From Stegostoma tigrinum (taxonomy: Eukaryota), in assembly GCF_030684315.1 (NCBI RefSeq), contig NC_081393.1, positions 16,425,479 to 16,489,478 on the forward strand: 64,000 nt of DNA. Direction: 5' to 3'. The stretch's first letter is position 1. Every line of letters begins with the position of its first letter. Positions 9,612 to 64,000 of the stretch are shown here, piece after piece. The notes below the pieces were generated by a model that was not told where the DNA came from, did not search any database, and was given only the letters and a program-made list of their open reading frames with translations. A program made the position numbers and the translations under genes.

Positions 9612-10869
9612 AGTAAAGCTCTCTTTACACTATCCACCAAATGTGGAATTTCTTCTCTCAGGGCAAGAGTAAATCTTTGGAATTGTTTACCACAGACTGC
9701 TGTTAAGGCCGGGTCATTAAATTATATTTGAGGCTGAGATAGATTTCTATTCAGTAAGAAAATCAAGGATTATGGGGCAAAAGGCAGGAAAGTGGAGTTC
9801 AGGGTTATCACATCAGCCACGATCTAATTGAATAAATAAGCAGACTTGTTGGGCTGAATGGCTTACGTCTGCACCCCCATCTTATGGTCTCCCCGTCAGC
9901 CCCTTGCCTGCTGTTGTTTCAGTGTTAGATGTGCAACATCTGAATTGGTGGGTGCAAATCAGAAGGTCACCACATTGAGCTGACAGCAGTTCCGAGCAGG
10001 TAAAGTCTGAGTGGCTGCACATTCCTACAGCAACTTATAGAGACGAGTGATCCTCATTTAACTGGACGATGAAATTTCTCAAGTGTTACTGGGTGCTATA
10101 TCTACCTGTTTCACCACATGCCCAGTACTGATCTCAAGGTCTTTTAAAAAAAATAAATGCGAGAAAGGAATATTGAAGAAGCTTTCAGCAGGAGGCAATG
10201 GAAGAATGAAAGAAATGGTATTGTTTGTACCTATCAGCAACTCGCCATGCCTCTTTGGCAGCACCTTCCAAACATACAGCCTCTACCCCTCCGAGGGCAA
10301 CAGATGAAAGGGAACACCACGCCTGCAAATCCCCACCTCTGAACGGACCAGATAACTATCAGCGACAGCAATGTGCCATCTCCATGTAAATGCAAATAAA
10401 TCAAAAACACTGCATGAAACACAGCCTATTTGTGAAAGCCTCTCCAATCCAAAACTGTGACTCCTCTGAATGCCACTAGACAATCAGGATTAGGTAAACT
10501 CAGCTGAGTTATGATGATGGCACATTTTACAACGCTGGTGCAGCATTCAAAACCCACAGGCGACAAAGCTGCCGAGTGCCCAGGTGTCATTGTCGTTTCG
10601 TAGCCAGGCCCCAGTCTAGTGGAAAATGATAGCATCTCATCAGTAGCTGGAAGGGTGGGACCACTTCGCCATGTGACCACTACAGCATGCAGCATTTCCT
10701 CACTCACCCCACAGTGTCCCGGCCAGACAGGGTGGTAATACTTGTTCTGGTACCATTCTTTCCTTAAGTTTGAAGGCAGCTTTAGCCGAGGCTCGGGGTA
10801 TCTTTTTCTTGGTGGTCGGGAGGAGGAAGAGGAGGGGTGGGGGGAGACAGAATGGGCATGGTAACTTAC

Positions 10870-11186
10870 CGTGCACTCTTGGAATAACAAGGTAGGGTGA
10901 CGTGGCTGATGTCCTGGATGTCCAAAGCGGTGGGCTCTGCCGAGATAGCCTGCCTCTTGGTCCTGTGCTGCTCTTGGAGTTGGCTGCTGCTGGACTCGCT
11001 CTGGCTAGGGGGCTGAGCGGCCGGCCGCAGGACCGAGCGGTATTTGTCCAGTTCGGTTTGAAGCTTCTGGATCAGCTCGTCCTTCTGGTCCAGCTCCAGC
11101 TCCAGCTCGTCGATCAGGGCGTCTCTCTGCCTCAGCTCCTCGATCTTCTCCTGGAGGGCGTACTGCAGGTCCCGCAGGGTCCCCAT
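10870..11186 (-). CDS. PRKG1: PKG I-beta-specific first coding exon (leucine zipper plus autoinhibitory site)
   Basis: ATG at 11186; [54 protein letters not shown] is the PKG I-beta N-terminus; 317 nt, ends CG|gtaag (phase 2). Confidence 0.95.
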
Positions 11187-12350
11187 CTCTCCCGGCACGG
11201 GGTGGGTAATTGACAAAATTTCGCACCCCCCGGGACCAAAAGCAACTCTGTTTTCCTACTTCCCACCAGCCAAGCACAGCTGAGGAACCAGATTATTTAA
11301 GCATTCTCGCTCCTCTCTCTCTCTCTCTCTGAGCAGCCCTGGCTGTTCCAGTTGACTGTCTGCACGTAACTACATTCCCGGGGTGCCCTCGCTAACCTGC
11401 CGTGGGGAGCCGACAACTTCCAGTGCGAGCGAAGAAAAATCCTCTGGCGAACCGAGCAACCTTTAGATTCCCCCCACCCTAAAACTAGCTCAAACCCCAG
11501 GGCTGAAAACGCCCGTGCCGAGTCCGGCCAACTCTTGGGCACTTCCCATCAGTTGCTTCACTCCCCTCCCAACGGAGAGCGTCAATCCCCGTACAGACTT
11601 GGGGAAAGACGATTAATCAAAACACCGGAAAACAACGGTTGGTGGGGGGTGGGGGTGATGGTGGGTTACAGGAGGTTGCAGGAGGTTAACGGGAGGCTTC
11701 CAGATGAAGACTGGCACCGCTACGTGTTTGGAGGCGCGCTATCCACAAGGAGCATGGTGTGGCGGGGTGGGTGGGTGGGGAGGGGGGGCGTGGAGAACCG
11801 AAGCTCAGGGCGTTGAAGAGGGGAAGTTGGAGGCGTGTTGTGGCTGCTGCTGAGCGCGCACACACACCGCAGTAGAGACTTCACAAGCTGGGACGGCGGC
11901 GCCGATGTAGGATTCAGCACTGGGTCAGTGGACAGCGCCACTCGGGGCCAGGGCGGCTGCTGACCCGCTCTGCAGACCGTTGCCCTTCTCACATGCCATC
12001 GTCAGCAACAACCATATTTGGCCAGGGAAGAGCACAGGCGCGGTGCCCTCCCTCGCCACTATCCCGGTCAATTTGAGAATCATTTTTGTGAGCGGTCAGA
12101 TTTTGTATCCCCCTGCCCCCCTCTCAGTCTGGATTGTGCGTGCGTCTACAGTTTTATCGTCCTTACTCTTACTTCCCTTCCACAAGTCTCAGGAACACCA
12201 GCGGGGGTCTCACCTCAACGCATTCCAGTCAGCCCCCAGTGCGGGCGTGACCCAGAGACCTCACCGTTTCAAATGCTTCGAGTCTTGACTGAACGCAGCG
12301 CACCAAGGAGTGAGAGATAACTCGCAAGGGGCCACTACGAAAATACAAGC
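11187..12350 (-). promoter_or_regulatory. CpG-rich promoter/5' UTR region of the I-beta isoform
   Basis: Visible CpG/GC enrichment relative to the flanks directly upstream of the beta ATG; (CT)n near 11312; G-rich tracts at 11640-11790. Confidence 0.6.
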
Positions 12351-12459
12351 CTCTACTGAAACAATCCAGGAAGGGCGAACAGCTCAACTCTTTCTAATCT
12401 AGCTAACACTGAAATTTCTGCACAGTCCCAGGCAAACCCTGGGATTCACCAGAAACCGA

Positions 12460-12885
12460 ACTATATAATGCTGCAGCTACAGAAGCACGCCAGAGGCTGG
12501 AAATTCAGGGGCAAGTCGCTCGCTGCATGGCCCTTCAGAGCCTGGTCGCCACCTACAAGGCACAAGTCGGGAGTGTAATGGACCACACCCCTTCTGCTTG
12601 GATGACTTCAGCGTCAATAACATTCAATATCGTTGGCACCATCCAGGACACAGCAGTCCACTTCACTGGCACTAAACCTACAAACATTCACTCTCTCCAC
12701 GACCAACACACACAAAAGCAGTATGTATCCTCTACAAAGTACACTGCAGAAACTCGACGCCACCTCCAGTGTCCATAATCAAGGACAAGGGCAGCACATA
12801 TGTGGAGACACCTTCTGCAAGTTCCCTCCCAAGCCACTCATCATCCTGACTTGGACATCTCGACACTGGGTCAAAATTCCATTTT
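12460..12885 (+). mobile_element. degraded LINE 3' fragment (L2/CR1 group)
   Basis: ORF 12527-12778 contains TYKAQVGSVMDHTPSAW, an ORF2 C-terminal-like motif; repeated at 52830-53190. Confidence 0.6.
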
Positions 12886-16419: not shown

Positions 16420-17330
16420 CATCACCTCTGCCTGGTTACCCCGATGTAGAGGGGGTCACAATGGGTACAGTGGATGCAGTATACCACATTAGCAGATGTG
16501 CAGGTGTAAGTCTTCTTGGGGCCTGGGATGGGGGTGAGGGAGGAGGTGTGGGGGCAGGTGTAGCACTTCCTGCAGTTGCAGGGAAAAGTGCCAGGTGTGG
16601 TGGGGCTGGAAGGGAGTGTGGAGCGGACAAGGGAGTCATGGAGAGAGTAGTCTCTCCGGTATCCGTTGTGGCCTCCGCTACATCGGGGAAACCAAGCGGA
16701 GACTTGGGGACCGCTTTGCAGAACAGTCATGCTCGGTTCACACTAAACAACCGCACCTCCCAGTCGCGAACCATTTCAACTCCCGCTCCCATTTCTCAGA
16801 AGACATGTCCATCCTGGGCCTCCTGCAGTGCCACAACGATGCCACCCAAAGGTTGCAGGAACAGCAACTCGTATTCCGCTTGGGAACCCTGCAGCCCAAT
16901 GGTATCATTGTGGATATCACAAACTTCAAAATCTCCCATCCCACTACCGCATCCCAAACCAGTCCAGCTCATCCCCGCCTCCCTAATCTGTTCTTCCTCT
17001 CACCTATCCATTCCTCCCACCTCAAGCCGCAGCCCCATTTCCTACCTACTAATCTCATCCCGCCTCCTTTAGTGGCTCCATATCCGCTTCTTTAAATTGT
17101 CTGTCTCCTCTCCACCTATCTTCTCCTCAATCTATCTTCAATCCGCCTCCGCTTCTCTCCCTATTTATTTCAGAACCCCCTTCCCCTCCCCCATTTCTGA
17201 AGAAGGGTGTAGGTCCAAAGCGTCAGCTTTTGAGCTCCTAAGATGCTGCTTGGCCTGCTGTGTTCATCCAGCTCTACACCTTGTTATCATCTCGGATTCT
17301 CCAGCATCTGCAGTTACTATTATCTCTGAT
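16420..17330 (+). mobile_element. Penelope-like element 3' part (GIY-YIG endonuclease) with an inverted 5' segment
   Basis: Plus-strand ORF 16595-17095 LRYIGETKRRLGDRFAE..PVANHFNS..EQQLVFRLGTLQPNG; minus-strand ORF 16422-16730 CRKCYTC..NVVYCIHCTHCDPLYIGVT. Confidence 0.88.
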
Positions 17331-20807: not shown

Positions 20808-21733
20808 AAGACTCAACAGAATTTGGCTACAACAATTCAGAATTTGATTTTTTTTCAAAAATTGAGGGAAATTAAAATGCAGTCTCAGTAAAAGTGATTG
20901 TTAAGCTGCCAGACTAAGTAACAATGCTATTGTTTCACCAAGTTCCCACACAGCAGGAGGTCTGCCTAAGAGACCACAGTCAATACACATTGTTAACTCT
21001 TAATTGAAAAATGACCATTCTGTCTAACTGGTGTTCATACAAGTGTCAGAATTTACAGCACAGTAACAGGCCTTCAGCCCAACAATGTGGTGTTTGAGCT
21101 TTCCTTCTATGCTCTCCACCTAACCTCAGTCAACTTTCTATATCTTTATTTTACATGCATTCATGTAGCTTCCCCTTAAATGCATCTCTGCCATTCACTT
21201 TATTTATTCCCTGTAAATTGAGCATTCCACAGTTTCATCTCTTTCAGTAACAATACTTCTCCTGAATTCGCTACTGGATTTTATTTGTAACAATCCGAGA
21301 TTAATAGCTTCTGGTCTTGGTCTCCAATTCGACAGCACAGGAGCCACTCCCTAATGTTCAAAATCTGGTTGAAATCCAGAGAAACTATGAAAGAGAAAGT
21401 CTACCTTGTTCACCTTGTTGTATGGTACAATACTGAGTTAATGAACCAAATGACAGTGGTCACCACTTGACCGGCCATTTTACTGAATTCACACTTCACC
21501 ATCTGCTTTGTTAGGGTTTCGACGTTAGCCAGAGGTTCTGGGTAACCAGTCCAGTGATATTACCATTATGTCACCCCTTCAAATAGTTATTCTGAAAATT
21601 ATTCGAACTTCCTATGCACTTAGGGAGAATATCAGCATCTTAATATTGATCAAAAATTACTGAGTCTCACTCAGCACAACTATTGTTTCCGTTCATATGA
21701 AGCTAGATCATTGAAATTAAAGTGTAATCTTAC

Positions 21734-21996
21734 CGATCTGGTTTCTCATGTGCCTGAAGCTTGAAGTTGTGCCAGTTACAAGAGGTCAAAAAACTCTGGG
21801 GTTCTGCTGAGATGCCCTGAGCCCTCCTGGTCCGAGACGGGAGTTGAGTTTTTGGGAGCACAGAATGGCACTTGTGGAGTTTAATCCTCAGATCCTGGAT
21901 CTCATGTTCTCGTTCGACAAGCTGAAGCTGCAGCTCCTGAATCTTGGCCTCCTTCAGGGCTAACAGTGCCTTGAAACCCTGCACAATCTCACTCAT
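21734..21996 (-). CDS. PRKG1: PKG I-alpha-specific first coding exon (leucine zipper, Cys43, autoinhibitory site)
   Basis: ATG at 21996; MSEIVQGFKALLALKEAKIQEL..KLHKCHSVLP..RTRRAQGISAEPQ matches the PKG I-alpha pattern; 263 nt, ends CG|gtaag (phase 2, same as the beta exon). Confidence 0.9.
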
Positions 21997-23699
21997 TTTC
22001 AACCTGTTCTGAAATGAACGCGTGAAGACTGAAAATCCTCACTGCAGAGCCAAGATCCAGACTGTGAAACGTGGACCAGGGGAGAATGTAATGGTTGGCA
22101 GGAAGAGAGAGGGGAAAGAAAAACTTGTGTAGCAGATAAGAAAGACACTAAGCCCCTATGTCACCTCCAAACCAGTATTCAAAGGCTCCACTCATCTTAT
22201 CCATTCAAGATCACCCCAAGTCATCTCCAAATGCACTGCTTGCCTTGTCGTGCGTGAGGTAGTATCAATGTTCACATCAGCAATGACGACTATTACTTTT
22301 CACAGCAACCTGCAAAACACTCGAGTTCTGTATCAGAGCCTGAATTCATACAGAATTCAAGAGCCCTTGAACTCTCAAGCTTTAAGAAAACAAAATGCAG
22401 GTCTTGGCAGGCACTGCTCCTACTAGGTTCTCGGAGGAGTGGAGAATGGAAAATCTAAGGCAAATAGTTGAGTGCAACTTCAAACAAAATTGGACCCCAT
22501 CAGATAATCTAGTACTCATTAGGCCAGGTGGCCAAAAAATTTACTTAAAAAAAAGACACAAGATTTGACACTCCTTAGGATGGTTCTTCAGTCTTACCTT
22601 TTTGGTTCAACGTTTGGTCACTTTTCCTGATTTCTACTGGCCTCATCTGGTGTCAAAACAATGTTAAAAGATTAAGCAAAGGAGATTCGAAGAGCGATTT
22701 TCTGAAGGTACATGATGTACAGAGAAAACAAAACTGTTGCAATGAGCTGACTACATAAGGACTAGTGGACACAGATGTAAGGCTTTGGGGTAGGGGCATT
22801 GAGAGGAAAAACTGTTTTAGACAGTAAAAGATAATGCCCTGGATCTCGCTGCCATCAAAGGTAATGGAAGCAGTGTCAATCAATGATTTCAAAAGAAAAG
22901 TGAATGTCCATTTGAATTAAAAACAAGGTTGCAGGGCTATTGGCATAAACCTGGAGAAACAGGACAGACTGGACTGGAGAACCAGAAAAGACTTAATGGG
23001 CTGAACAACCTTCTTCTGCATTGTGAATTACTTTATGGCCATGTTTTTATTTAGGCTGCACACCTGTGGGAAGTTTCACAACAATAAATACATCAAGCCA
23101 AATTCTTGTTGATCCCAAACCTGAAAGACAGTGTGGTTTTAGGAAGCTTTGTAGACAGAGCTTAAGCAGCTGGAAGCCAGGCTGAAAGTGCATTGCAAGC
23201 GAGATTGGGACAAGCAGAGAGGTCCAGAGCCACAGGAGGCATGAGGAGGTGACAGAGCTAGTCAAGGGCGATGCCACAGAGGGATTTGAATTTAAGCATG
23301 AGAATTTTAAAAGCAAGGCATTAATGGTAGGAGAAAGCTCACCTAAGGCAGCAAGCATAGGGATAATGGCTTAAATGGGACTTGCTGTGAGTAAGCAAAG
23401 TTTTGAGTTAACTCGAGTTTATGAAGGGTGGAAAATGGAATAACCAAGTTTGGAGAGAGAAACGCACTGGAGTTTCAGCAGGAGGACTGAGGCAGGGTCA
23501 GGAACAGGCCATATTAAAAAACGTGGAAATAGCCCTTCTGGTGCGAGCGCAGGGAAGTGGTTGAAAATTCATCCTGGGAACAAAGATGACATCTAGATTG
23601 GGAAAGGTTTGTTTGAGCTTCCAACAATATCAAGGAAGTTAAAAGCAAGGGAACGGAGCTCACAACAGTGACTGAAGTCGATAGCTTTGGTCTTCATCA

Positions 23700-33125: not shown

Positions 33126-33677
33126 CTTTGAAAAGAAACAAAGCGTGCATCAGATTATCATCCCTTACAAATACAAGGACACAGACTGAAAATTGACAGC
33201 TGCTTCACGTTGCAGCCCAATCACTCAAATTGATTCAAATTTCAATGCTGTCATTTGGAAAAGATCTATTGTACACCACCACCTCCCTGTCTGAAAAATC
33301 TTCTTTCAGTTCCTAAAGCCCCTCAATCATTGGACAATGGCTCCAAAGGTACTGATTAAGTTTTGGCCTTACTCCATTGCAGTCCTCAGAGGCTTGGCTT
33401 AGCAAGAGCCAAGTCACAAGTCTTGACCATGAGGAGAAAGAAAAATCTAACCCTGGCAACAGAGCGGAAAGAAGAAAACATGGATTATCCAAAGACATAA
33501 GGCACAAGTCACCTCTGTTTTCCAATGAAGGGATGTCTTCTCTGTCTTTAATGCATTTTGTCTTCCTTTCAATCATTAACTGTCTCACACTGTGGGATAA
33601 GCTTTGCCCTTAGGAGACACCCCCAAATCAAATGCAAATACTATCAAATGAAACGAAGGCACAGCAATGAGAGGTAC

Positions 33678-33850
33678 CTTTCCTTGTAGTCATCAGCCTG
33701 CAGCTGTCTCTCGATGCACTGCATTTGCTCCTTCCGAACAAAATCACGGAGTCGGTGCAAGGCTGCCTCTCGGCAAAGTTCCCGCAAATCACTGCCCGAG
33801 TAACCGGCTGTTTTCTCTGCTATTTCTTTCAGTCTCACATCACTGTTTAA
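33678..33850 (-). CDS. ATAD1: ATAD1-like, coding exon 8
   Basis: 173 nt, ccag|..AG|gtacc; LNSDVRLKEIAEKTAGYSGSDLRELCREAALHRLRDFVRKEQMQ.. Confidence 0.93.
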
Positions 33851-33971
33851 CTGGTAGGGATATTTTAAACAGAGGGACAAAAAAAACTAATCAATAACCA
33901 CCTCCAAGGTAGAGCAGAAAATGCAGTGGGTGACAGACAAATGTGAGTAAGAGGAGAAGTGAGACACATAC

Positions 33972-36480: not shown

Positions 36481-36921
36481 CTCTACAAAATGGAAGCTTC
36501 TGGAATCACTATCATGAATCTCTTCAACACCCTCTCCAATGACCCTCATACAGTTCCCAGAAATGAACAAGGCGCTCCAGTTCAGGTCAAAGCACTGTTT
36601 CGCACAGCATTGTAATAAATCCCCTGCTTTTGCACTTCATTCCCTATTATGAAGTCTAGGATCCTGATGCTTCCTTAAGTGCTTTCTCAACCTGCCCTGC
36701 CACCTTCAGTAATTTACGCACTCACAGCACCAAGTTTCTCTGCTTAGGTGCATAACAGCTAACTCTGAATATCAGATACCCAAGAGTGAGTTACAGGCTC
36801 AAATCAATCAAAAAGAGAAAAACATGGTTTATACTTACAGATGGCCCTTTTTTGTCAGACTCTGGCAGAAAAGGTAGTTCTTGATCCATGAATAATCACT
36901 CTCTGGCAAGTCAGCACCTAC

Positions 36922-37122
36922 CTATTTCATCAATGAAGACAATACAAGGCTCAATTTTTGCAGCCAAAGAGAAGACAGCAGCTGTCAGCTTCTGTGACTC
37001 TCCGTACCACTTGTCGGTTAATGCTGAGGCCTGCATGTTGATGAAGTGGCAGCCAGTGACATTTGCGATAGCTTTGGCAATGAGGGTCTTCCCACAACCA
37101 GGAGGGCCATACAGCAACACAC
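36922..37122 (-). CDS. ATAD1: ATAD1-like, coding exon 4 (Walker A, pore loop 1, Walker B)
   Basis: 201 nt, atag|..G|gtaggt; [51 protein letters not shown]. Confidence 0.97.
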
Positions 37123-37444
37123 CTATACATAACCAGAGAAAGAAGAACCCTATTTGAAATCCAACATGAATAGGCAGACAGTCAGGATCTGAATAAGAAA
37201 ATCTAGATAGATTGTCTTCAGGCACAACGATCTGCATCAGAATCAATTGGCTTTTCACTGTTCAGACATTGGTAGGCCTTTTGATTTGGGTTTTACTGAG
37301 ATTTTCCAAACTTATAACTGATAGACAGGAACTAGACTTGCAGTTGAAACACAAGGCTGCGGATGCAAAGACACTCTGATCACTGAAAAACACGTAATGC
37401 TGTCAGAGAAATGTAAGCAGAACTCTGTGCTTGCCTGGACGTGA

Positions 37445-37769: not shown

Positions 37770-38037
37770 CACACACTCTGCTATGACACACAACCCATTG
37801 TTAGCAATTAACAGTCACCATTTACAGCTATTCACTGTCCGAGCCAGATCACGATCCACTCTTGTCTGTCCAACTGTTCTTGTGTCTTTGGGTTCTATCC
37901 CCAATCACCTATCTTTTTCTCCTGACACCCCTCCCACCACCTTACCTTCTGCATAAAAATCAATATTTTCCTAGCTACCATTAGTTCTGAGGAAGTGTCA
38001 CCAGACCCAAAATGTTAACTCTGATTTCTCTTCACAG
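37770..38037 (+). mobile_element. Penelope-derived terminal fragment interrupted by a CR1
   Basis: ttctgaggaag..cacc.gacccaaaatgttaactctg..cacagatg, continuing at 39469 as ttgcgagacctgctgagcttttccagc. Confidence 0.7.
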
Positions 38038-39468
38038 ATGGAGGATTGCAAATGTTGAGCCCTTGTTCAAGAAGGGCAGTAGGGACGACCCAACTAATTA
38101 TAGACCTGTGAGCCTTACATCTGTTGTAGGAAAAGTTTTGGAAAGGATTATAAGAGGTAAAATTTATAATCATCTAACAATCAACAATTTGATTGGAGAT
38201 AATCAGCATGGATTCGTCAAGGGCAGGTCGTGTCTCACAAACCTCATTGAGTTTTTTGAGAAGGTGACCAAGCATGTAGATGACGGAAGGGCAGTTGACG
38301 TGGTGTACATGGACTTCAGTAAAGCCTTTGATAAGGTTCCACATGGTAGGCTATTGGAGAAAATACAGAGGCACGGGATTGAGGGAGATTTAGCAGTTTG
38401 GATTAGAAACTGGCTTTCTGTAAGAAGGCAACAAGTGGTGGTTGATGGAAAATATTCAGCCTGGAGTCAGGTTACTAGTGGTGTGCCTCAAGGATCTGTT
38501 TTAGGACTACTGCTGTTTGTCATTTTTATAAATGACTTGGACGCAGGCATAGGTGGATGGGTTAGTAAGTTTGCAGATGACACACTAAAGTCGCTGGAGT
38601 GGTGGACTGTGTGGAGGAATGTTGCAGGTTGCAGGGAGACTTGGATAAACTGCAGAATTGGGCTGATAGGTGGCAAATGGAGTTTAATACAGAGAAATGT
38701 GAGGTGATTCACTTTGGGAGGAATAATAGGAAGGCAGACTACCGGGTTAATGGAAAGATTCTTGGTAGTGTGGATGTGCAGAGGGATCTTGGTGTCCATG
38801 TACAAAGATTCCTGAAAGTTGCCAACCAGGTTGATAGTGCTGTTAAGAAGGCTTACGGTGTTTTAGGTTTTATTGGTAGAAAGATTGAGTTCCAGAGCCG
38901 TGATGTCATGCTGCAACTGTACAAGATGCTAGTGCGGCCTCACTTGGAATATTGCGTGCAGTTCTGGTCGCCCCATTACAGGAAGGATGTGGAAGCATTG
39001 GAAAAGGTGCAGAGGAGATTTACCAGGATGTTGCCTGGTCTGGAGTGCAGGCCCTAAGAAGAAAGGCTGAGGGACTTGGGTCTGTTCTCATTGGAGAGAA
39101 GGAGGCTAAGAGGGGATTTAATAGAGACATACAAGATGATCAGAGGATTATATAGGGTGGACGGTGAAAGTCTTTTTCCGAGGATTATGACGTCAGCTTG
39201 TACAAGGGGGCATAGCTACAAATTGAGGGGTGACAGATTTAAGACAGATGTCAGAGGCAGGTTCCATACTCAGAGTGGTAAGGACGTGGAACGCCCTGCC
39301 TGCCAATGTAGTTAACTCAGCCACATTACGGGCATTTAAACAGTCCTTGGATAAGCATATGGATGATGACGGGATCGTGTAGGGGGAGGGGCTTAGATTG
39401 GTTCACAGGTTGGCGCAACATTGAGGACCGAAGGGCCTGTTCTGCGCCATACTGTTCTATGTTCTATG
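38038..39468 (+). mobile_element. CR1 LINE, 5'-truncated (RT to tail)
   Basis: ORFs 38012-38707 and 38599-39057 with RT motifs ([22 protein letters not shown]); gttctatgttctatg tail. Confidence 0.95.
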
Positions 39469-39987: not shown

Positions 39988-41191
39988 CTATTGGAATGTG
40001 TCAAGAAACAAAGACAACAGTATTGACTGGGCTGGACCCAAATGTGACAGCAATCTAAATGGCATTGTAATGAACGAGCAGTTAACCCATCTTACGAGGA
40101 GGCATTAATCAAAACACCATAAATTCCCAGGATATTTTCTGGTCATGCTTTGGGATTTTTAGGCCCCATCTTTCCGCTAATAGAGAGCTCTGTGGGGTGG
40201 GGTGATGGCATTTTGTAGGCTGGGCTACCCAAAGAAATGCATTTCTTGAATACCTTCAGAAATTAACTGGAGGGTTCATTTAACAATAGCTCCTATCTCT
40301 TGACTGATTTGCTTATGAAGCCACTGACCTTGAGCCGAAATTGATGGGTTCAGCTAAAGGACAGAGATTGATTCTGGTGGTGGTGGTGGAGTTCAATTTG
40401 CCCCCACCACGGTAAGTGAGGGAGTAGAGAGATTGAGAGCAATGTTTTGCTGGCTGGCTTATTGCACTTGGAGGAAACACTCATTCCTTTTTCTCTTGGC
40501 CAACAAGATTTGTTACCAAGGCAACTAATCCATAAATTCTGCCCCTCTTCCTTTCATTACATTGTTGCCCTGATATACTACTTCCAATTACTTCAAAGTC
40601 CCTCAGCCTGCTTCCATTCAAACTGAATGGGCATGTTTGATTCTTGTTGAAATCAAAATGTCTGAAACATTTGACAATCTAAAGCTATACGCTTATTGAG
40701 AGTTATGATTCAATGTCTGTTTAAACTACCTAATCAAGCAGATTTTTTAAACATCCGCCCTTAGGTACAGGACTTCTGCCTGTATCCTCTCTCTGTTGTC
40801 TCAGTTTAAATGTTGGGCTCAAACCGAAAATATTTCGATGGAGAGATGGAAGTAATACAGGTTGAATCAAAAAACTCCAATCAAGTACATCTTAATGTCT
40901 CTACCAAAGAACTCTATAGCCAAACACATAGCAAATACTTCATTCTGTGCAATAGCAGATGAACAATAGGGAGTCTTGTATTGAATAAGAGATAACAAAG
41001 TACGGAGCTGGAAGAACACAGCAGGCCAGGCAGCATCAGATGAACAGGAAAGCCGAGGCTATGGGTTGGGACACTTCTATTGAACAGCTCATAGTGCCAT
41101 ACACACCAGCACAGACCAACTTAGATGAGTAGGTGGCCAATGATACGTCACTGACTTAATAAATCAAGAGACACCAAGAGAAAACACTCAC

Positions 41192-41850: not shown

Positions 41851-44800
41851 ACATAGAACATTACAGCACAGTACAGGCCCTCCATGTTGTGCCGACCTGT
41901 CATACTGATCTCAAGCCCATCTAACCTACACTATTCCGTGTACGTCCATATACTTGTCCAATGACGACTTAAATGTACCTAAAGTTGGCGAATCTACTAC
42001 CGTTGCAGGCAAAGCGTTCCATTCCCTTACTACTCTCTGAGTAAAGAAACTACCTCTGACATCTGTCTTATATCTTTCACCCCTCAACTTAAAGCTATGC
42101 CACCTCGTGCTCGCCGTCACCATCCTAGGAAAAAGGCTCTCCCTACCCACCCTATCTAACCCTCTGATTATTTTATATGTTTCAAATAAGTCACCTCTCA
42201 ACCTTCTTCTCTCTAACGAAAACTGCCTCAAGTCCCTCAGCCTTTCCTCGTAAGACCTTCCCTCCATACCAGGCAACATCCTAGTAAATCTCCTCTGCAC
42301 CCTTTCCAAAGCTTCCACGTCCTTCTTATAATGCGGTGACCAGAACTGTACACAATACTCCAAGTATGGCCGCACCAGAGTTTTGTACAGCTTCACCATA
42401 ACCTCTTGGTTCTGGAACTCGATCCCTCTATTAATAAAAGCTAAAACACTGTATGCCTTCTTAACAGCCCTGTCAACCTGGGTGGCAACTTTCAAGGATC
42501 TGTGTACATGGACACCGAGATCTCTCTGCTCATCTACACTACTAAGAATCTTACCAATTAGCCCAGTACTTTGCCTTCCGGTTACTCCTACCAAAGTGCA
42601 TCACCTCACACTTGTCCGCATTAAACTCCATTTGCCACCTCTCAGCCTAGCTCTGCAGCTTATCTATGTCTCTCTGCAACCTACAGCATCCTTCGTCACT
42701 ATCTACAACTCCACCAACCTTAGTGTCGTCTGCAAATTTACTAACCCATCCTTCTATGCCCTCATCCAGGTCATTTACAAAAATGACAAACAGCAGTGGA
42801 CCCAACACCGACCCTTGCGGTACACCACCAGTAACTGGTCTCCAGGATAAACATTTCCCATCAACTACCACCATCTGTCTTCTTTCAGCAAGCCAATTTC
42901 CGATCCAAATTGCTATATCTCCCACAATTTTATTCCTCCGCATTTTGTACAATAGCCTACTGTGGGGAACCTTATCGAACGCCTTGCTGAAATCCATATA
43001 CACCACATCAACCGGTTTACTCTCATCTACCTGTTTGGTCACCTTCTCAAAGAACTCAATAAGGTTTGTGAGGCACGAACTTCCCTTCACAAAACCGTGC
43101 TGACTATCCCCAATCAATTTATTCTTTTCTGAATGATTATAAATCCTATCCCTTATAACCTTTTCCAACACTTTACCAAAAACTGAGGTAAGGCTCACTG
43201 GTCTATAATTACCAGGGTTGTCTCTACTCCCCTTCTTGAACAGGGGAACCACATTTGCTATCCTCCAGTTATCTGGCACTATTCCTGTAGAGAATGACGA
43301 GTTAAAGATCAATGCCAAAGGCTTGGCAATCTCCTCCCTGGCTTCCCAAAGGATCCGAGGATAAATCCCATCCTGCCCAGGGGACTTATCTGTCTTCACC
43401 CTCTGTAGGATTTCTAACACCTCTTCCGTGTGAACCTCAATCCCACCTAGTCTAGTAGCCTGTATCTCAGTATTCTCCTCGACAACATTGTCATTTTCTA
43501 GAGTGAATACTGTTGAAAAATATTCATTTAGCGCTTCCCCATCTCATCTGACTCCACACACAACTTACCACTACTATCCTTGATTGGGCCTAATCTTACT
43601 TTCGTCATTCTTTTATTCCTTAAATACCAATAGAAAGCCTTAGGGTTTACCCTGATCCTATCCGCCAACAACTTCTCATGTCTCCTCCTGGCTCTTCTGA
43701 GCTCTCTCTTCAGGTCTTTCCTGGCTAGCTCGTAGCCCTCAAGTGCCCTAACTGAGCCTTTACATCTCATCCTAACATAAGCCTTCTTCTTCCTCTTGAC
43801 CAGAGATTCCACCTCCTTCGTAAACCATGGCTCCCGCACTCTACGGCTTCCTCCCTGCCTGACAGGTACATATTTATCTACGACACACAGGAGCTTTTCC
43901 TTGAATAAGCACGACATTTCTAATGTGCCCATCCCCTGCAGTTTCCTTCCCCATTCTATGCTCCCTAAATCTTGCCTAATCTCATTGTAATTGCCTTTCC
44001 CCCAGCTATAACTCTTGCCCAGTGGTATACACCTATCCCTTTCCATCACTAAAGTAAACATAACAGAATTGTGATCGCTATCACCAAAGTGCTCACCTAC
44101 TTCCAAATCTAATACCTGGCCGGGCTCATTACCCAGTACCAAATCTAATGTGGCTTCGCCCCTTGTTGGCCTATCTACATACTGTGTCAGGAGGCCCTCC
44201 TGCACACTCTGGAGAAAAACTGACCCATCTATAGTACTCGAACTATAGTGTTCCCAGTCAATATCTGGAAAGTTGAAGTCCCCCATGACAACTACCTTGT
44301 TTCTCTCACTCCTTTCGAGAATCATCTTTGCTATCCTTTCCTCTACATCTCTGAGGCTATTCGGAGGCCTATAGAAAACTCCCAACAGGGTGACCTCTCC
44401 TTTCCTGTTTCTAACCTCAGCCCATACTACCTCAGTTGACGAGTCCCTAAACATCCTTTCTGCAACTGTAATACTGTCCTTGACCGACAATGCCACACCT
44501 CCGCCCCTTTTACCATCTTCTCTGTTCTTACTGAAACATCTAAATCCCGGAACCTGCAACAACCATTCCTGTCCCTGCTCTATCCATGTCTCTGAAATGG
44601 CCACAACATCGAAGTCCCAGGTACTAACCCATGCTGCAAGTTCACCCACCTTATTCCGGACGCTCCTGGCATTGAAGTCGACACACTTCAAACCAACCTC
44701 TTGCTTGCCGGTGCCATCTTGCTTCCCTGAAACTTTATTTCGGACCACCCCACTCTCAACCTTTTCTACAGTCGAACTACAATTTTGGTGCCCATCCGCC

Positions 44801-45737
44801 TATTGAATTAGTTTAAACCCACCCAAACAGCCTTAGCAAATTTTCCCCCCTGGATATCGGTACCCCTCTGGTTCAGGTGAAGACCATCTTGCTTGTAGAG
44901 GTCCCACCTACCCCAGAAAGAGCCCCAGTTATCCAAGAATCCAAAATCCTCCCTCCTGCACCATCCCTGTAGCCACGTGTTCAACTCCTCTCTCTCCCTA
45001 TTCCTCGCCTCACTAGCACGTGGCACAGGCAGCAAACCAGGGACAACAACTCTGTTCGTCCTAGCTCTAAGCTTCCATCCTAGCTCCCTGAATTTCTGCC
45101 TTAAATCCCCATCTCTCTTCCTACCTATGTCGTTGGTGCCAATGTGGACCATGACTTGGGGCTGCTCCCCCTCCCCATTAAGGATCCCAAAAACACGATC
45201 AGAGACAACACGCACCCTGGCACCTGGGAGGCAACACATCAACCATGAGTCTCTCTCGTCCCCACAGAACCTCCTATCTGTCCCCCTAACTATGGAGTCC
45301 CCAATGACTAATGCTCTGCTCCTCTTCCCCCTTCCCTTCTGAGCAGCAGGGACAGACTCTGTGCCAGAGACCTGCGCCCCACTGCTTTCCCCGGTAAGTC
45401 CCCCCTCCCAACAGTATCCAAAACGGTATACTTATTGTTGAGGGGAATGGCCACAGGGAATCCCTGCACTGCCTGCCGGTTCCCTTTCCGTCCCCTGACC
45501 GTAACCCATCTGCCTTTTTCCTGTACTTGAGGAGTGACTACCTCCCTGTAACTCCTCTCAATAACGCCCTCTGCCTCCCGAGTGATCCGAAGTTCATCCA
45601 GCTCCAGCTCCAGTTCCCTAACGCGGTTTTCAAGGAGCTGGAGTTGGGTGCACTTCCCGCAGATGTAGTCAGCAGGGACACTAGTGGTGACCCTTACCTC
45701 CCACATTCTGCAGGAGGAACATTCAACTGCCCTGACC
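41851..45737 (-). mobile_element. near-full-length CR1 LINE: ORF1 (zinc finger, coiled coil, SGNH esterase-like) plus ORF2 (APE endonuclease, RT); disrupted
   Basis: 45308-45706 (YICGKC, coiled coil), 44808-45242 (HIGTNDIG..DGLHLN), 43528-44748 (NARS, ISETW, MGDFN, LDLVL, SDHN), 42647-43420 (RT, FADD), 41926-42594 (C-terminus); frameshifts/stops between pieces; begins at about the start of ORF1 with no 5' UTR visible. Confidence 0.96.
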
Positions 45738-45846: not shown

Positions 45847-46026
45847 CCTTTTCTTGTTCTCCACCTTCTGTCTCCGTGTTGGATCTATGGTATCCACCAT
45901 CCATTTGATACCAAAGTACGCGGCAGCACCAAATACCGTGAGACGGAAGAGCATCCCCAGCACCTCTTTCCGGCTCAGTGGCCGCACCACTGCCTCCTTG
46001 GAAATTTCATTCAGCAGCATGTTCAT
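45847..46026 (-). CDS. ATAD1: ATAD1-like, coding exon 1 (N-terminal membrane anchor)
   Basis: Acceptor ttctcacttcag|G at 46037, ATG at 46026, donor AGG|gtatgg; MNMLLNEISKEAVVRPLSRKEVLGMLFRLTVFGAAAYFGIKWMVDTIDPTRRQKVENKKR; the nine exons sum to 1146 nt with consistent phases. Confidence 0.93.
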
Positions 46027-46689: not shown

Positions 46690-47630
46690 AATTAAGGTTT
46701 TGGAGTAGATCTGTAGCTTGGGTTGTGGGTGCTCAGGTTGGTTGGCTCGCTAAGATGGTTTGTCATTCTGCAGATGTTTCGGTACCGTGCTTGGTAACAT
46801 CCTCAGTGCAGCCTCTGATGAAGCGTCAGTGTGTTTTCCCGCCTGGTTTTTAAACTCTGGGGTCCATTCCAATGGATTGCCTCACTTCTGGGTTTCCTCC
46901 GTAGTGGAATGTATATGGGGTCGAGTTCAATGTGTTTATTAATAACATGCTTCGTGGAGTGCCGTGCTTGCAGGAATTCTTGTGCTTGTCTCTGCCTAGC
47001 CTGTCCCAGGATCTTGGTGTTGTCCCAGTTGAAGTCATAGGTCTCTTTGTCCACGTGGATTGAGATGAGTGCGTGTGGCCGTGTCTTTTGGTGCCAGTTG
47101 GTGTTCACGTATTCTTATTGTTAGTTTCCTTCTTGTTTGTCCGACGTTTCTCACATTCTCTGCAGGGCATCTTGTAGATGACGTTGGTCCTGTCCATTGG
47201 GGAGTGGGTCTTTAGTTCGGGTGAGCACTTGTCATAGGGTTGATGTGGGCTTGTGTGCCACTCTGATGCCCAGCGGTCATAGGAGTCTTGTGGTGAGTTC
47301 AGAGGCATCCCTGATGTAGGGTAGTGAGATGAGTGTGTTGGGGCGTGTAGAATCTTTCTGATACTGTTCCTGTAGGCATCTCCTGACCCAGTTCTTTGGA
47401 TATCCATTATCCTTGAACACTTGGAAGAGGTATTCTTCTTCCTCTTGGCGTAGTTCCATGCTGCTGCAGTGTGTTGTTGCCCTTTTAAATAGTGTTCGCA
47501 CACAGCTTCATTTGAGAGTGCTGGGATGGTTCGTGTTGGAGTTCAATGCCTGGTCTGTGTGTGTGGGTCTTTGGTGTACTTTCGTTTGCAGTTCCCCATT
47601 TGTCTTGCGCTCTACCATGACACCCAGGAA
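46690..47630 (-). mobile_element. Penelope-like element 3' part (RT C-terminus, GIY-YIG, terminal repeat)
   Basis: ORFs RTLFKRATTHCS..LFQVFKDNGYP..ISLPYI, TNVIYKMPCREC, DFNWDNTKILG..QEFLQA..INKHIELDPIY. Confidence 0.9.
46768..46811 (-). ncRNA. candidate minimal type I hammerhead ribozyme in the Penelope terminus
   Basis: Minus strand CTGCA-CTGAGGA-T-GTTACC-AAGCAC-GGTACC-GAAAC-ATC-TGCAG: core CUGANGA/GAAA/NUH, 5-bp helix I, helix II with one mismatch. Confidence 0.6.
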
Positions 47631-48029
47631 CCAGAAACAAACAACTCCCATTCAGTAAAAAACTTAGAGGGTGGTGTTTAGGCTTTTGAGCTCAACATTC
47701 AGTCCTGAAGGCTGCACAGTCCCCAAGCAGAAGTCTGAGATCTGCGGTTCTTCATGCAATTTCCCTGAAAAATCCCACATCGTTCAAAGAGGTCACCCAT
47801 CGTTCTTGTAAATTCCAATGTGTGGACTGCCAACCCGTTCAACCACTACTCATGGTCAATGGTATTTCTCCTGATGATGTTAGGCAATAGACAACAGGTG
47901 CAGGAGTAGGCCATTCGGCCCCTCGAGACAGCACCACCACTTGACAGTGGGGTGGGAGTTGGGGGTTTACTGATGGGTCCATGAGGTCGTGGAAAGAGTT
48001 CTGACTCTGTCTGCGAGGGGGAGAAAGCA

Positions 48030-48480
48030 ACTACCTTGCGGCCCGTTGCTTTTGTGAACACCCCAAGGCACAGCCAGGGCAATGGGACCCTCTGCCTTCA
48101 CTGGAGCCGGCAGCCGGCATTCGCGCATGCGTAGAATGCACCTTCCTCACCCCACGGCTTCCCTCAAGCCCCCCCCCTAGCGGTTTAACCTGTAACCGCG
48201 AGCACAGCGCTGCCCAAAGGGACAAGACGGCAGCAGAGACCAAAAAAAAGCACAACTAAACAAAATACAGACTTCCCCACCCTCCTTCCCTTTAAAGGGC
48301 GAAACCACCACCTGCCTCCGGCCCCTCGGAGAATGCTTGGGCCATTCGGTCCGGCGGCCGCCCCGCTCCCGTCACCAGCGCGCCGCCATCTTCTGGGCAA
48401 CCGCGAGCATCGTCCGGCCGCCACATTGGATTCGAAATAATGGTTCCCCCCCCCACCGCAACACAAAAGGTACTCCAAGC
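48030..48480 (-). promoter_or_regulatory. CpG-island promoter / non-coding first exon of the ATAD1-like gene
   Basis: Dense CpG; YY1-type AAGATGGCGGC (48382-48392, minus); NRF1-type GCGCATGCG (48123-48131); CCAAT (48425-48429, minus); candidate donors at 48151|gtgagg and 48035|gtagtt. Confidence 0.75.
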
Positions 48481-49084
48481 ACTTTCACCATGTGCACCAC
48501 TCGCTCCTCCTCCCCCTCCATCAGCAACGTTAATGTCATAACTTTCACACATTTTCCGCCCACCCACGCAACTCAGCTCTGAAAAAGTGGCATATCTGAC
48601 TTTAACGTCAACTCTCTCTCTCCCCCCCCCCCCCCACAGATGCTGCTAGACCTGCTGAACATTTTTGGTTTTAACACGTTGTTTTCTCATTGTAATAAAA
48701 GACAACATGACATGTAAGAATTATATCTTGTGTCCTTTCTGACGTTTATAACACCTTCATCCAAATTCCATTTTATGTTTCCGAATCGTACAGTCTTAAT
48801 GATCATATAGGGTTGGCGAAATGCTTTTGAGAGCGGCCCGTGAAGGACAATCTGGGTCTAGGCCTGAAACGTCAGCCTTCCTGCTCCTCTGATGCTGCCT
48901 GGCCTGCTGTGTTCATCCAGTTCTACACCTTGTTAGCTCAGATTCTCCAGCATCTGCAGTTCCTACCATCCCTGTAAGAACCTGCAGTTAGATAGTGACT
49001 AACAATATACAGCATTTGTGACAAATTTCAATGTGATATTGTGCATTTCTAAGGTATTCAGACATGATTCCTAGTTCACAGGAA

Positions 49085-53190: not shown

Positions 53191-53642
53191 TATCCCACTC
53201 CACACCAGCACCTAGCTGCCTGTAACTGAAAGACAGACCCCCACTCACACCAACGTAGGAGCTGCCACTGCTTAGGTGCCATCCCTTCACCACTGGGCCC
53301 CACCATGCTAATGCTGCCAAATCCCATGCTGAACCCACACAGACCCCTCAACCGGGAGTCCCCTGCACCATGGCCACCGCCAGTGTCAGAGGTTCTGCTC
53401 ACCCTGACAGCTGGCTCTGAGGAAGCCAGACCTGTGTCAGGTACAATGCATGCATAAACAATGGGTGACTTGGGGATGGGATCCCAGCTTCTGCAGCATT
53501 ATCTCAAGCACTTCTTCAAGTGACCTTTAACAGATTTTGGTTGGTCTCCTGACCCATCCTTTTGTGCAAAAAAACTAAATTGATGTTTCTTCACAAACTT
53601 CACCCAGACGTCATAGAAGTCAACTTGCCTTCTGCTCATCAA

Positions 53643-53772
53643 AGATAACAAGGTTTAGAGCTGGATGAACACAGCAGGCCAAGCAACATCAGAAGGGTCT
53701 AGGCCAGAAACATCAGCTTTCCTGCTGCTCTACACCTTGTTATCTCAGATTCACCAGCATCTGCAGTTCCTC
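53643..53772. mobile_element. short palindromic Penelope-derived element
   Basis: gataacaaggtttagagc / gctctacaccttgttatc inverted; same family as 17200-17325 and 48850-48970. Confidence 0.7.
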
Positions 53773-53799
53773 CTACCTTCTGCTCATCAAAACCAGCTG

Positions 53800-54427
53800 C
53801 GGAAACCGCCCTCGAATGATTGACATGAGATTAAACCAATTGGACACCGCAATCCCTGGCACAAGCCAACCAGAAGAAGGAAGTTGGGGAAGAGGGGAGA
53901 TAACGTGATTGACGGCCATACAGACCAATGGGTTACCGACATGCGGAGGAGTCCGCCCCTTGGAGGCGTGGTTGTGAGTGATTGACAACATGCCAGACCA
54001 ATAGAACAGTGGGTTGGCGTCCTCTGTCCAATGCGGAATGACGCTGCTTGGCCTGCTGTGTTCACCCAGCTCCACATTTTGTTTTCTCGAACTATATTGA
54101 TAGTCACCAGAACCCGATTGTGCGGCAAACAATCCATGATTGACATGAACACGAACCAATGGTAGGATGGGACGTGAAAGGGTGGACCTATTGGCATGAG
54201 CGGTAGTGCTAATTGACGGCTAGTAATCCAATGGGTTGACGAAGTGTGGAAGGCTCCAGCCTATTAGGGCCCTGTTCGCATTGACTGACAGCGCGATGAT
54301 CCAATGAGACGGAGGGTAGCTGTGGGTGCCGGCCTCCTGTGGGCGGGCCCACGACCGGCGGAGCTGTGGACGGCTCGGGTGGAAATTTGAACGGAATCTC
54401 AATGAGTGCTACCGGCGGTTCCGAGAC
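53800..54427 (+). promoter_or_regulatory. WBP1 CpG-island promoter with six TGAYTGAC-like/CCAAT composite sites and GC boxes
   Basis: Composite motifs start at 53817, 53906, 53979, 54137, 54210 and 54282; GC boxes at ~53806, ~53953 and ~54341; CpG-rich. Confidence 0.8.
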
Positions 54428-54511
54428 ATGGAGAAGATGATCGTCGGCTTCCTCCTCTTCATCTCCCCGGCTTTCCCCGTCGGGCCGTCGCGGATGGAGC
54501 TGCAAGCCGAG
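54428..54511 (+). CDS. WBP1: WW domain-binding protein 1, exon 1 (signal-peptide-like)
   Basis: gacATGg start in the CpG island; MEKMIVGFLLFISPAFPVGPSRMELQAE; GAG|gtatgg phase 0 matches the next exon. Confidence 0.7.
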
Positions 54512-54879
54512 GTATGGCCCCGGAGGTGACGCGCCGGCCGGGCATCGCGCTCTAGGAAAGACCGAGGCCTCAGCCATGGTGCTAGGCCGCGGTTGGTGCA
54601 GGAGTGGGATATGGGTACGAGTCCGGGTCCGGGTACGGATTGGGGTAAAAGTAGGGTATGGGGAGGAAGAGTTCAAAGGCTTCAAGATGTCCTTATCGTC
54701 CCCTCTGCCCAAAGTTGCCCCACCCCCGTGTTAAACCCTTAAACTGCAGCAATTTATCTGAAGGTTGATGCTACAAAGTTATTTTTTAAAATGCGACCTG
54801 AAAATTGACACGTTCAAAATCATCACTGCCATTTCCATAGCACCTTTCATCCTACTCAAACATTCTGAAATACACGAGT

Positions 54880-55640
54880 TACTGTGGGATGGATGTGTTC
54901 CCACCTGTGAGGGGGATTTCCATTCAAGTGGCATGGAGTAGGGGGGTCGCTCGAGTAAAACTGAGTTTGAAAGAACATTTTCTTCTGCGCGGGGGTGAAT
55001 CTATGGATTTCTCTACCCCAGAACGTTGTGGAAACTAGATCACTGAAAGTACTTCAGGAAGAGTTGGGTGTGTAGGTAGGTTTTTGAAATATCAAAGAGT
55101 TGAGAGTTCTGAGGAGTTGGCACAAAAGCTGAGGCCTGGGCAGATCAGATAGAGTCATGATCTTATTAGAATGGTGGGGCAGGCTTGAGGGATTGAATAG
55201 CTTTCTCCTGCTGTTTATTACGTTCTCACCCAAGGACTTCACAGGAGTCATAGAGCTGTACAGCAATGGAAACACACCCTTTGGTCCAAATCATCTATGC
55301 CAACAGAATATTCTAAATTAATCTAGTTCCATTTGCCAGCATTTAGCCCATTATCCCGTGAAACCCTTCTCATTCATATACCCAGCAAGATGCTTTTTAA
55401 ATATTGTAATTGTACCAACTTCCAATGCAGCTCACTCTGTACACATGCTGCCTTGTGCACAATAAAGTTGTCCCTTTTAAATTTTTCCTCTCTCACCTTA
55501 TACCCATACCCTCTAGTTTTGGATTACCCATCACTGGGGAAAATACCTTGGTTATTCAGCCTATCCATGCCCCTCATGATTTTAGAAACCTCTACAAGGT
55601 CACCCCCCGCCCCCAACCTCTGACACTCCAGGGAACATTG
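54880..55640. mobile_element. two degraded CR1 3' fragments in opposite orientation
   Basis: 54880-55220 (+) and 55245-55640 (-) carry CR1 3' signatures. Confidence 0.6.
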
Positions 55641-61548: not shown

Positions 61549-61758
<210 letters not shown>

Positions 61759-62607: not shown

Positions 62608-62817
<210 letters not shown>

Positions 62818-63556: not shown

Positions 63557-64000
63557 GATTCTGGACAAACTGTAAGCTCCCAGACTACGAGGAAGTGGCA
63601 GGACACCCTCCAACACCCCCACCTCCTTATACTGAACTACAGCAGCAGAACACACAGACCTCTACCTATGAAAATGTGGTTGTCGAGAGCCAGCCTGCTT
63701 TACAGGAGTCTGTAAACTCACTTGCATTAGAGGCAACACAAGAAGCAGAGGCAACACAAGAAGCAGAGTCTAACTCATCCACTCATGAACAGGAGGATGA
63801 CCAGGTGTCTGATGACCCCACAGAGGTATCACCCACTTATCCAGCTGACAGAGAAAATGGTGACATTATTCAAGAGGAGGAATCTGCTGCACTCTCGGCC
63901 TCCGATTTTAAAATGTTGGATACGGATTCCGACCTATGTGATCAAGGGGAAGGGAAGGAAGAAAGCTCAAGGCATAGGCGGATCACAGGAGACTCTGGCA
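63557..64000 (+). CDS. WBP1: WBP1 exon 4 (PY motifs), runs off the window end
   Basis: tgacag|GA; RFWTNCKLPDYEEVAGHPPTPPPPYTE..RHRRITGDSG, open to 64000 with no stop. Confidence 0.95.

Follow-up and report, generated by a model that had tools for sequence, protein, structure and literature searches.

Gene content of the locus

The window analysed here, a stretch of 64,000 nucleotides of Stegostoma tigrinum DNA, holds two genes in head-to-head arrangement, together with the cluster of composite promoter sites that is the subject of this report (Table 1). The plus-strand gene has four exons, which splice into a WBP1-family protein and are matched in three cases by the Pfam family WBP-1. The 12 top hits of exon 3 are 98–100% identical to it, 10 of them carrying shark, ray or chimaera names, and among the best 120 of 223 hits the named bony-fish proteins are 80–95% identical and mostly called WBP1, with one labelled WBP1L; no mammalian protein occurs among these best 120. 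The gene is therefore called WBP1 here, and its probable orthology to mammalian WBP1 follows the names of the fish hits and not a tree. A metagenome scan for further WBP1 loci using P0012 gave 617 pattern matches, 0 of which were confirmed.

Table 1 Coordinates of the genes, the composite sites and the neighbouring features within the window
Feature	Position	Strand	Remark
AAA-ATPase exons	33647-33886, 36914-37261, 45847-46026	-	head to head with WBP1
Decayed frames, probable retroelement	46690-47660	-	no Pfam hit at 0.001
Putative block A of the duplication (units 1-3)	53790..54025	+	approximate ends
CpG-rich zone	53801..55000	.	o/e 0.60-1.03 vs 0.33 for the window
Unit 1, TGATTGAC-N11-CCAAT	53817..53840	+	DECA-N11-CCAAT; at upstream border of CpG-rich zone
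Unit 2, TGATTGAC-N11-CCAAT	53906..53929	+	register partner is unit 5
GC box, unit 2-3 linker	53953..53959	-	from sequence; altered at 53956 in organism B
Unit 3, TGATTGAC-N11-CCAAT	53979..54002	+	
Extra lone CCAAT	54028..54032	+	30 bp past the unit 3 CCAAT
Short high-copy dispersed repeat fragment	54039..54088	+	between units 3 and 4; probably absent in organism B
Putative block B of the duplication (units 4-6)	54110..54345	+	approximate ends
Unit 4, TGATTGAC-N11-CCAAT	54137..54160	+	
Extra reverse CCAAT	54190..54194	-	in linker; absent from organism B
Unit 5, TAATTGAC-N10-CCAAT	54210..54232	+	imperfect
Unit 6, TGACTGAC-N11-CCAAT	54282..54305	+	full DECA (TGACTGACAG); closest to gene
WBP1 coding exon 1	54428..54511	+	signal-peptide-like; organism C contig diverges at 54512
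WBP1 exon 2	61648..61750	+	Pfam WBP-1 positions 1-22, E 2.9e-5
WBP1 exon 3	62651..62812	+	Pfam WBP-1 E 5.6e-15
WBP1 exon 4	63557..64000	+	PPxY-type motifs; continues past the window

The region upstream of WBP1 contains no TATAWA in 53800–54430. The CpG-rich zone begins at unit 1, since the observed/expected ratio jumps there from 0.09 (53601–53800) to 0.65 (53801–54000). A contig of 2143 nt from organism C (run X15) aligns with 54353–54512 from its letter 29 onwards and then diverges, as a spliced transcript would; contigs of this sort cannot fix a start site. For the database proteins P0003 and P0010, extended N-termini are predicted (starting M-R-R and M-G-R), apparently read from an ATG within the CCAAT of unit 6 (window 54304–54427), and this extension is probably a prediction artefact because stops close that frame in the window.

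The minus-strand gene encodes an AAA-ATPase, which we take to be ATAD1-like. Its CpG island at 48001–48500 has one CCAAT and lacks the composite site, and a PDB search with the first ATPase exon returned 0 hits. A LINE lies inside the gene (41929–45431, minus strand), its frames being those of an esterase (GDSL), an endonuclease and a reverse transcriptase, and a second reverse transcriptase fragment is found at 37991–38704 (plus strand). Elsewhere in the window, two exons for PKcGMP_CC coiled coils (10869–11255 and 21733–22038, minus strand) resemble alternative first exons of a PRKG1-type kinase, and CCAAT is entirely absent from the CpG island at 11001–12500.

Six composite sites upstream of WBP1

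The six composite units announced in the preliminary description were all recovered at their positions, all on the plus strand, within 490 bp and 127–592 bp upstream of the WBP1 ATG, inside the CpG-rich zone. The exact pattern TGAYTGAC-N11-CCAAT accounts for five of them; unit 5 is imperfect and has a spacer of 10. A looser pattern, T[GA]ANTGAC-N9..13-CCAAT, matches six times in the 64 kb window, every time within the array. Such a cluster is not expected by chance: with N10..12, the window yielded on average 0.105 matches, and at most 2, over 200 dinucleotide shuffles, and when the local 720 bp were shuffled 5000 times a single match arose in 2 shuffles and never more than one.

Two further CCAAT boxes and a GC box, presumably of Sp/KLF type, lie between the units. 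The unit 5 half-site (window 54208–54217) includes TAATTG, which we regard as a general homeodomain-type word, and unit 5 is the best-kept unit in the related shark described below despite missing the G of the core.

The array is not a minisatellite or simple tandem repeat, as adjacent linkers are not significantly alike (gapped tests, p 0.16–0.46) and only a three-unit register was detected. On the same ground, an origin from a single 73-bp monomer was rejected.

Correspondence to the DECA-CCAAT element

A promoter element of this composition, DECA-CCAAT, is reportedly also treated in Voelkel 2018 (JBC), as cited by a preprint on the subject. In the portion of that preprint available to us, the element is defined as GAnnGAC-11bp-CCAAT, bound by PBX/PREP and NF-Y with the Sp2 N-terminus bridging them, and its models tolerate spacers of 10–12 bp (bioRxiv 10.64898/2026.02.16.706105). 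The shark array agrees with this in core, orientation, spacer and promoter position: the published core GAnnGAC is present in five of the six units (unit 5 is without the first G), 8–9 of the 10 positions of the full decamer tGAxtGaCag are matched in each of the six, and CCAAT follows downstream on the same strand after 11 bp in five units and 10 bp in one. The array differs in having six units over 490 bp. The assignment to PBX-PKNOX1/PREP1 and NF-Y made in the preliminary description, which called the array a TALE/NF-Y module, agrees with the published element; it overlooked Sp2, which explains the 11-bp rule.

Other reports describe related arrangements, as far as the available parts of these papers go. 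The DECA/NF-Y pairing is found in zebrafish (PMC6023610), the 11-bp spacing bias is also seen in ENCODE (PMC7793273), and about 70% of the top Sp2 sites have at least two CCAAT boxes, the strongest having several pairs (PMC4368557). The shark array shares multiple CCAAT boxes with these tandem-CCAAT Sp2 targets, whose typical spacing is, however, about 35 bp as compared with about 73 bp in the shark, where two linkers have in addition a lone CCAAT at +30 and +34, respectively. The closest comparison is the mouse Sp2 promoter, with three DECA-CCAAT units, of which two have the 11-bp spacer and the third a 10-bp spacer (bioRxiv 10.64898/2026.02.16.706105, same portion). Both promoters combine multiple units and both spacers, but the three Sp2 units lie within 150 bp and are almost invariant in mammals, whereas the six shark units are 72–158 bp apart and show turnover between two sharks. 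The same portion of the preprint reports conservation of the SP-box of Sp2, along with its YA-SLiM, in mammals, amphibians and fishes and leaves sharks unmentioned. No description of the array, or of the element in sharks, was found in the literature searched, among which the array would be the first DECA-CCAAT case in a cartilaginous fish.

Origin of the array

The preliminary description had held the DNA between the units to differ in sequence and the array not to be a simple tandem repeat. This holds for adjacent linkers; however, the linkers following unit 2 and unit 5 share 24 of 44 positions when aligned without gaps (p = 3.8e-5 for the best among 15 pairs; 2 of 2000 shuffles in a gapped test). 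When units 1–3 are paired with units 4–6, the non-motif segments score 58 versus 23 ± 10 (1 of 3000 shuffles), and four off-register pairings used as controls gave p 0.08–0.64. Two segments contribute most of this signal, namely the linker just named (z 4.3) and the flank upstream (z 2.3); the linkers of units 1–2 and units 4–5 are not alike (z -0.2). From the similarity in this register it is likely that a three-unit block was duplicated long ago, and that the motifs stayed while the linkers drifted.

The six sites might instead have been gained singly by point mutation, as in homotypic clustering, the likeness of the linkers then reflecting shared sites for other factors. This would account for three of the seven in-register segments being no better than shuffles and one negative, with just two above z 2. 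We nevertheless judge it improbable, as the unit 2–3 and unit 5–6 linkers are equal in length and match throughout their length, gap-free, the GC box is present in one and absent from the other, and the register extends to the bases adjacent to the cores (AT/AT, GG/GG).

Between partner units of the two blocks, the motif cores agree at 37 of 39 positions, a value inflated because the units were picked by motif; the best linker reaches 24 of 44 (Fisher p 3e-5). The contrast suggests that selection has acted on the motifs since they were duplicated. That event probably long predates the split from the related shark (organism B), as the linker distance of 0.70 is, by rough inference, several times the distance of 0.11 to that shark.

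Turnover in a related shark

For comparison, four of 24 listed runs were used, of which X6 and X9 come from two studies of organism B and X15 from organism C; organisms C and D gave no cover over the units, which is not taken as absence. In organism B the units have a depth of 7–10 (X6) and 3–5 (X9), and the repeat insert at 54039–54088 one of about 590,000 in X6; the difference in X6 marks the units as single-copy and the insert as a high-copy repeat. The insert has four further copies in the window, with identities of 84–87%, all belonging to a very high-copy dispersed repeat of about 125 bp (17205–17328, 40983–41064, 48854–48974, 53643–53775 and 54039–54088). The copy at 53643–53775 has a nested inverted arrangement directly upstream of unit 1.

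We take the insert to resemble Penelope, and the decayed element at 46690–47660 to be Penelope-like. A Penelope-derived fragment between units 3 and 4 had been proposed before; a high-copy repeat fragment is indeed present, whereas its Penelope origin could not be confirmed, as the window has 0 gathering-level Rfam hits, with only chance-level hits near the repeat, and no blastn link joins the insert to the decayed element. With repeat fragments both directly upstream of the array (53643–53775) and within it, one may ask if the array itself belongs to a mobile element or an LTR by which the sites were imported. This is extremely unlikely, since the depth is that of a single copy in both organism B runs at 80% likeness, the window has no second copy of the array, and no such repeat context is needed at the mammalian gene, which has the same factors.

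The array turns over between the two sharks. In organism B the unit 2–3 linker has a 12-nt insertion (listed for X6) and seven listed changes, 69 letters replace 112 (54001–54112), and one extra letter is present at 54178. The aligned piece at unit 3 ends at 54000, within the CCAAT, which may be broken; the CCAAT of unit 4 is broken by C>T at 54156, and the reverse CCAAT at 54190–54194 is lost. Unit 5 has no listed difference over 54209–54271, an unchanged stretch of 63 bp (scan p 0.010), and the change in unit 6 is confined to an 'n' position of the core. In the zone of units 4–6 (54145–54347, taken as fully listed; overall 40 of 108 difference rows are displayed), 2 of 31 motif positions are changed versus 17 of 172 others (p = 0.74), so that motifs are not measurably better kept than their surroundings.

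With the unit 4 CCAAT lost, spacings changed and unit 5 unchanged in organism B, the distal units seem redundant in part, and constraint seems stronger in the proximal part. It is conceivable, though on balance unlikely, that units 5 and 6 alone matter now and that units 1–4 are surplus copies under loss. Apart from the broken unit 4 and the unchanged 63 bp at unit 5, this would explain why organism B has 14 changes in 64 positions over unit 4 and its linker versus 5 in the next 139 (p 9e-5, with the boundary chosen post hoc), as well as the changes and the insertion in the unit 2–3 linker. However, the distal motifs of the present genome are all intact while the linker copies have diverged by some 0.7 changes per site, which requires long-lasting constraint, and CpG retention reaches as far as unit 1.

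Spacing of the units along the DNA helix

Successive CCAAT boxes are 89, 73, 158, 72 and 73 bp apart, which places units 2–6 at 0, 6.99, 22.1, 29.0 and 36.0 turns of 10.45 bp and unit 1 half a turn off. The steps inferred for organism B are 85, 115, 73 and 73; despite net indels of +12 and -43, they stay in phase (R 0.97). Null tests gave p 0.52 for all six units, p 0.07 for the best five and p 0.08 for phase retention in organism B. The phasing of units 2–6 is suggestive and is treated as a lead only.

Were it real, the array could form a higher-order platform in which successive TALE/NF-Y/Sp2 complexes sit on one face of the DNA about 7 turns apart and cooperate. We think this rather improbable: the near-integral turns of units 2–6 and the indels of organism B are what it predicts, but unit 1 is out of phase, the null tests are as given, the equal steps are partly due to the duplication, and the unit 4 CCAAT of organism B is broken anyway. 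The wider form of this proposal is equally doubtful, i.e., a phased polymer of such complexes that adds a second geometric rule of about 7 turns to the 11-bp rule, is kept through whole-turn indels, and acts on an input shared by WBP1 and WBP1L since before the early-vertebrate duplication.

Factors acting on the mammalian genes

The mouse Wbp1 start site has a Flag-Sp2 peak with the full-length protein (row 157 of 761) and with the Sp2 N-terminus alone, i.e., independently of the zinc fingers (row 189 of 717), and peaks of NF-YA (214 of 1204), NF-YB (627 of 4156) and NF-YC (294 of 1790) (PMC4368557 supplement 10). Loss of Sp2 changes NF-YA at Wbp1 from 2.23 to 1.56 and NF-YC from 2.11 to 1.20; NF-YB is not lowered (7.59 to 7.98) (PMC4368557). 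A Prep1 peak lies at -155 with a fold enrichment of 79.6, and in Prep1-null ES cells Wbp1 falls from an RPKM of 26.8 to 14.1, i.e., to 0.53 of wild type (adjusted p 7e-27) (PMC4395233); the available part of that study counts 1271 start-site peaks and 1802 genes with lowered expression. NF-YB siRNA lowers 1602 genes, human WBP1 among them (PMC7793273). In the S7 table of the same paper, INO80B-WBP1 readthrough goes up and WBP1 down after NF-YB knockdown, a pattern compatible with NF-Y sites that would shield the start of WBP1. No wbp1 or atad1a rows were found in seven zebrafish supplement files (PMC6023610), and no Wbp1 row in four supplement files of PMC6624317.

These mammalian promoters are comparable to the shark promoter in gene family, in the occupancy of mouse Wbp1 and Wbp1l by Prep1, NF-Y and Sp2, and in the dependence of WBP1 on Prep1 (mouse) or NF-YB (human), as given by the published factor tables. 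They differ in their neighbours, as human WBP1 adjoins the INO80B readthrough gene and shark WBP1 the head-to-head AAA-ATPase gene. Mouse D19Wsu162e is presumably Wbp1l, with which its position fits. It carries a Prep1 peak (PMC4395233 supplement 4), and Wbp1l has Sp2 and NF-YA/B/C peaks like Wbp1 (PMC4368557 supplement 10). Since either paralogue receives the same factors, the conclusion stands whether WBP1 or WBP1L is the true counterpart of the shark gene, and the peaks shared by the two mouse genes suggest that this input is probably old and may predate the WBP1/WBP1L duplication.

That the module drives WBP1, as first proposed, is consistent with the identity of the gene and with the mammalian gene being bound by, and dependent on, these factors. 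The further proposal of an action on the divergent ATAD1-like promoter is unsupported, as the ATPase gene has its own CpG island and the units face WBP1. The head-to-head layout, with the ATPase exons on the minus strand and the CpG island at 48001–48500, would permit the array to double as an enhancer for that gene 5.4 kb away. We consider such a role very unlikely, given that all units also adjoin the first exon of WBP1, that mouse Atad1, which we take as a probable paralogue of the shark gene, has Sp1 rows and no Prep1 row among the rows listed, and that just 1 of 7 DECA/NF-Y elements drove a reporter in zebrafish (available part of PMC6023610).

Discussion

We put at roughly 80% the probability of the following reading: six DECA-CCAAT-type sites are likely bound by PBX/PREP1 and NF-Y, with Sp2 as the likely bridge, and likely hold the TATA-less, CpG-rich WBP1 promoter open and active; an old tandem duplication of a three-unit block is their likely source. 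Binding by PBX/PREP and NF-Y, as well as function in the shark, are predictions. A single PBX/PREP1 dimer and a single NF-Y trimer, joined through Sp2, would likely occupy each unit. As a whole, the cluster would likely exclude nucleosomes from the DNA upstream of the start, a role that NF-Y plays in mouse ES cells according to the available part of PMC6624317, and would likely give broad WBP1 expression, with the additional units likely contributing strength or buffering.

The array appears as an enlarged but familiar promoter, because the mouse and human tables show the same factors binding or sustaining its likely mammalian counterpart. No new mechanism is revealed by it; the element and its clustering are already known (three units at mouse Sp2).

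What the array adds is that cartilaginous fish probably share the PBX/PREP–NF-Y–Sp2 promoter element already described in mammals and zebrafish. The array also offers a compact natural case of a composite-site cluster that probably grew by block duplication and then eroded, and it could be used for testing how the strength of a promoter depends on the number of units and their spacing. For the WBP1 family, the array suggests that the same input drove these genes across jawed vertebrates while the promoter sequence turned over.
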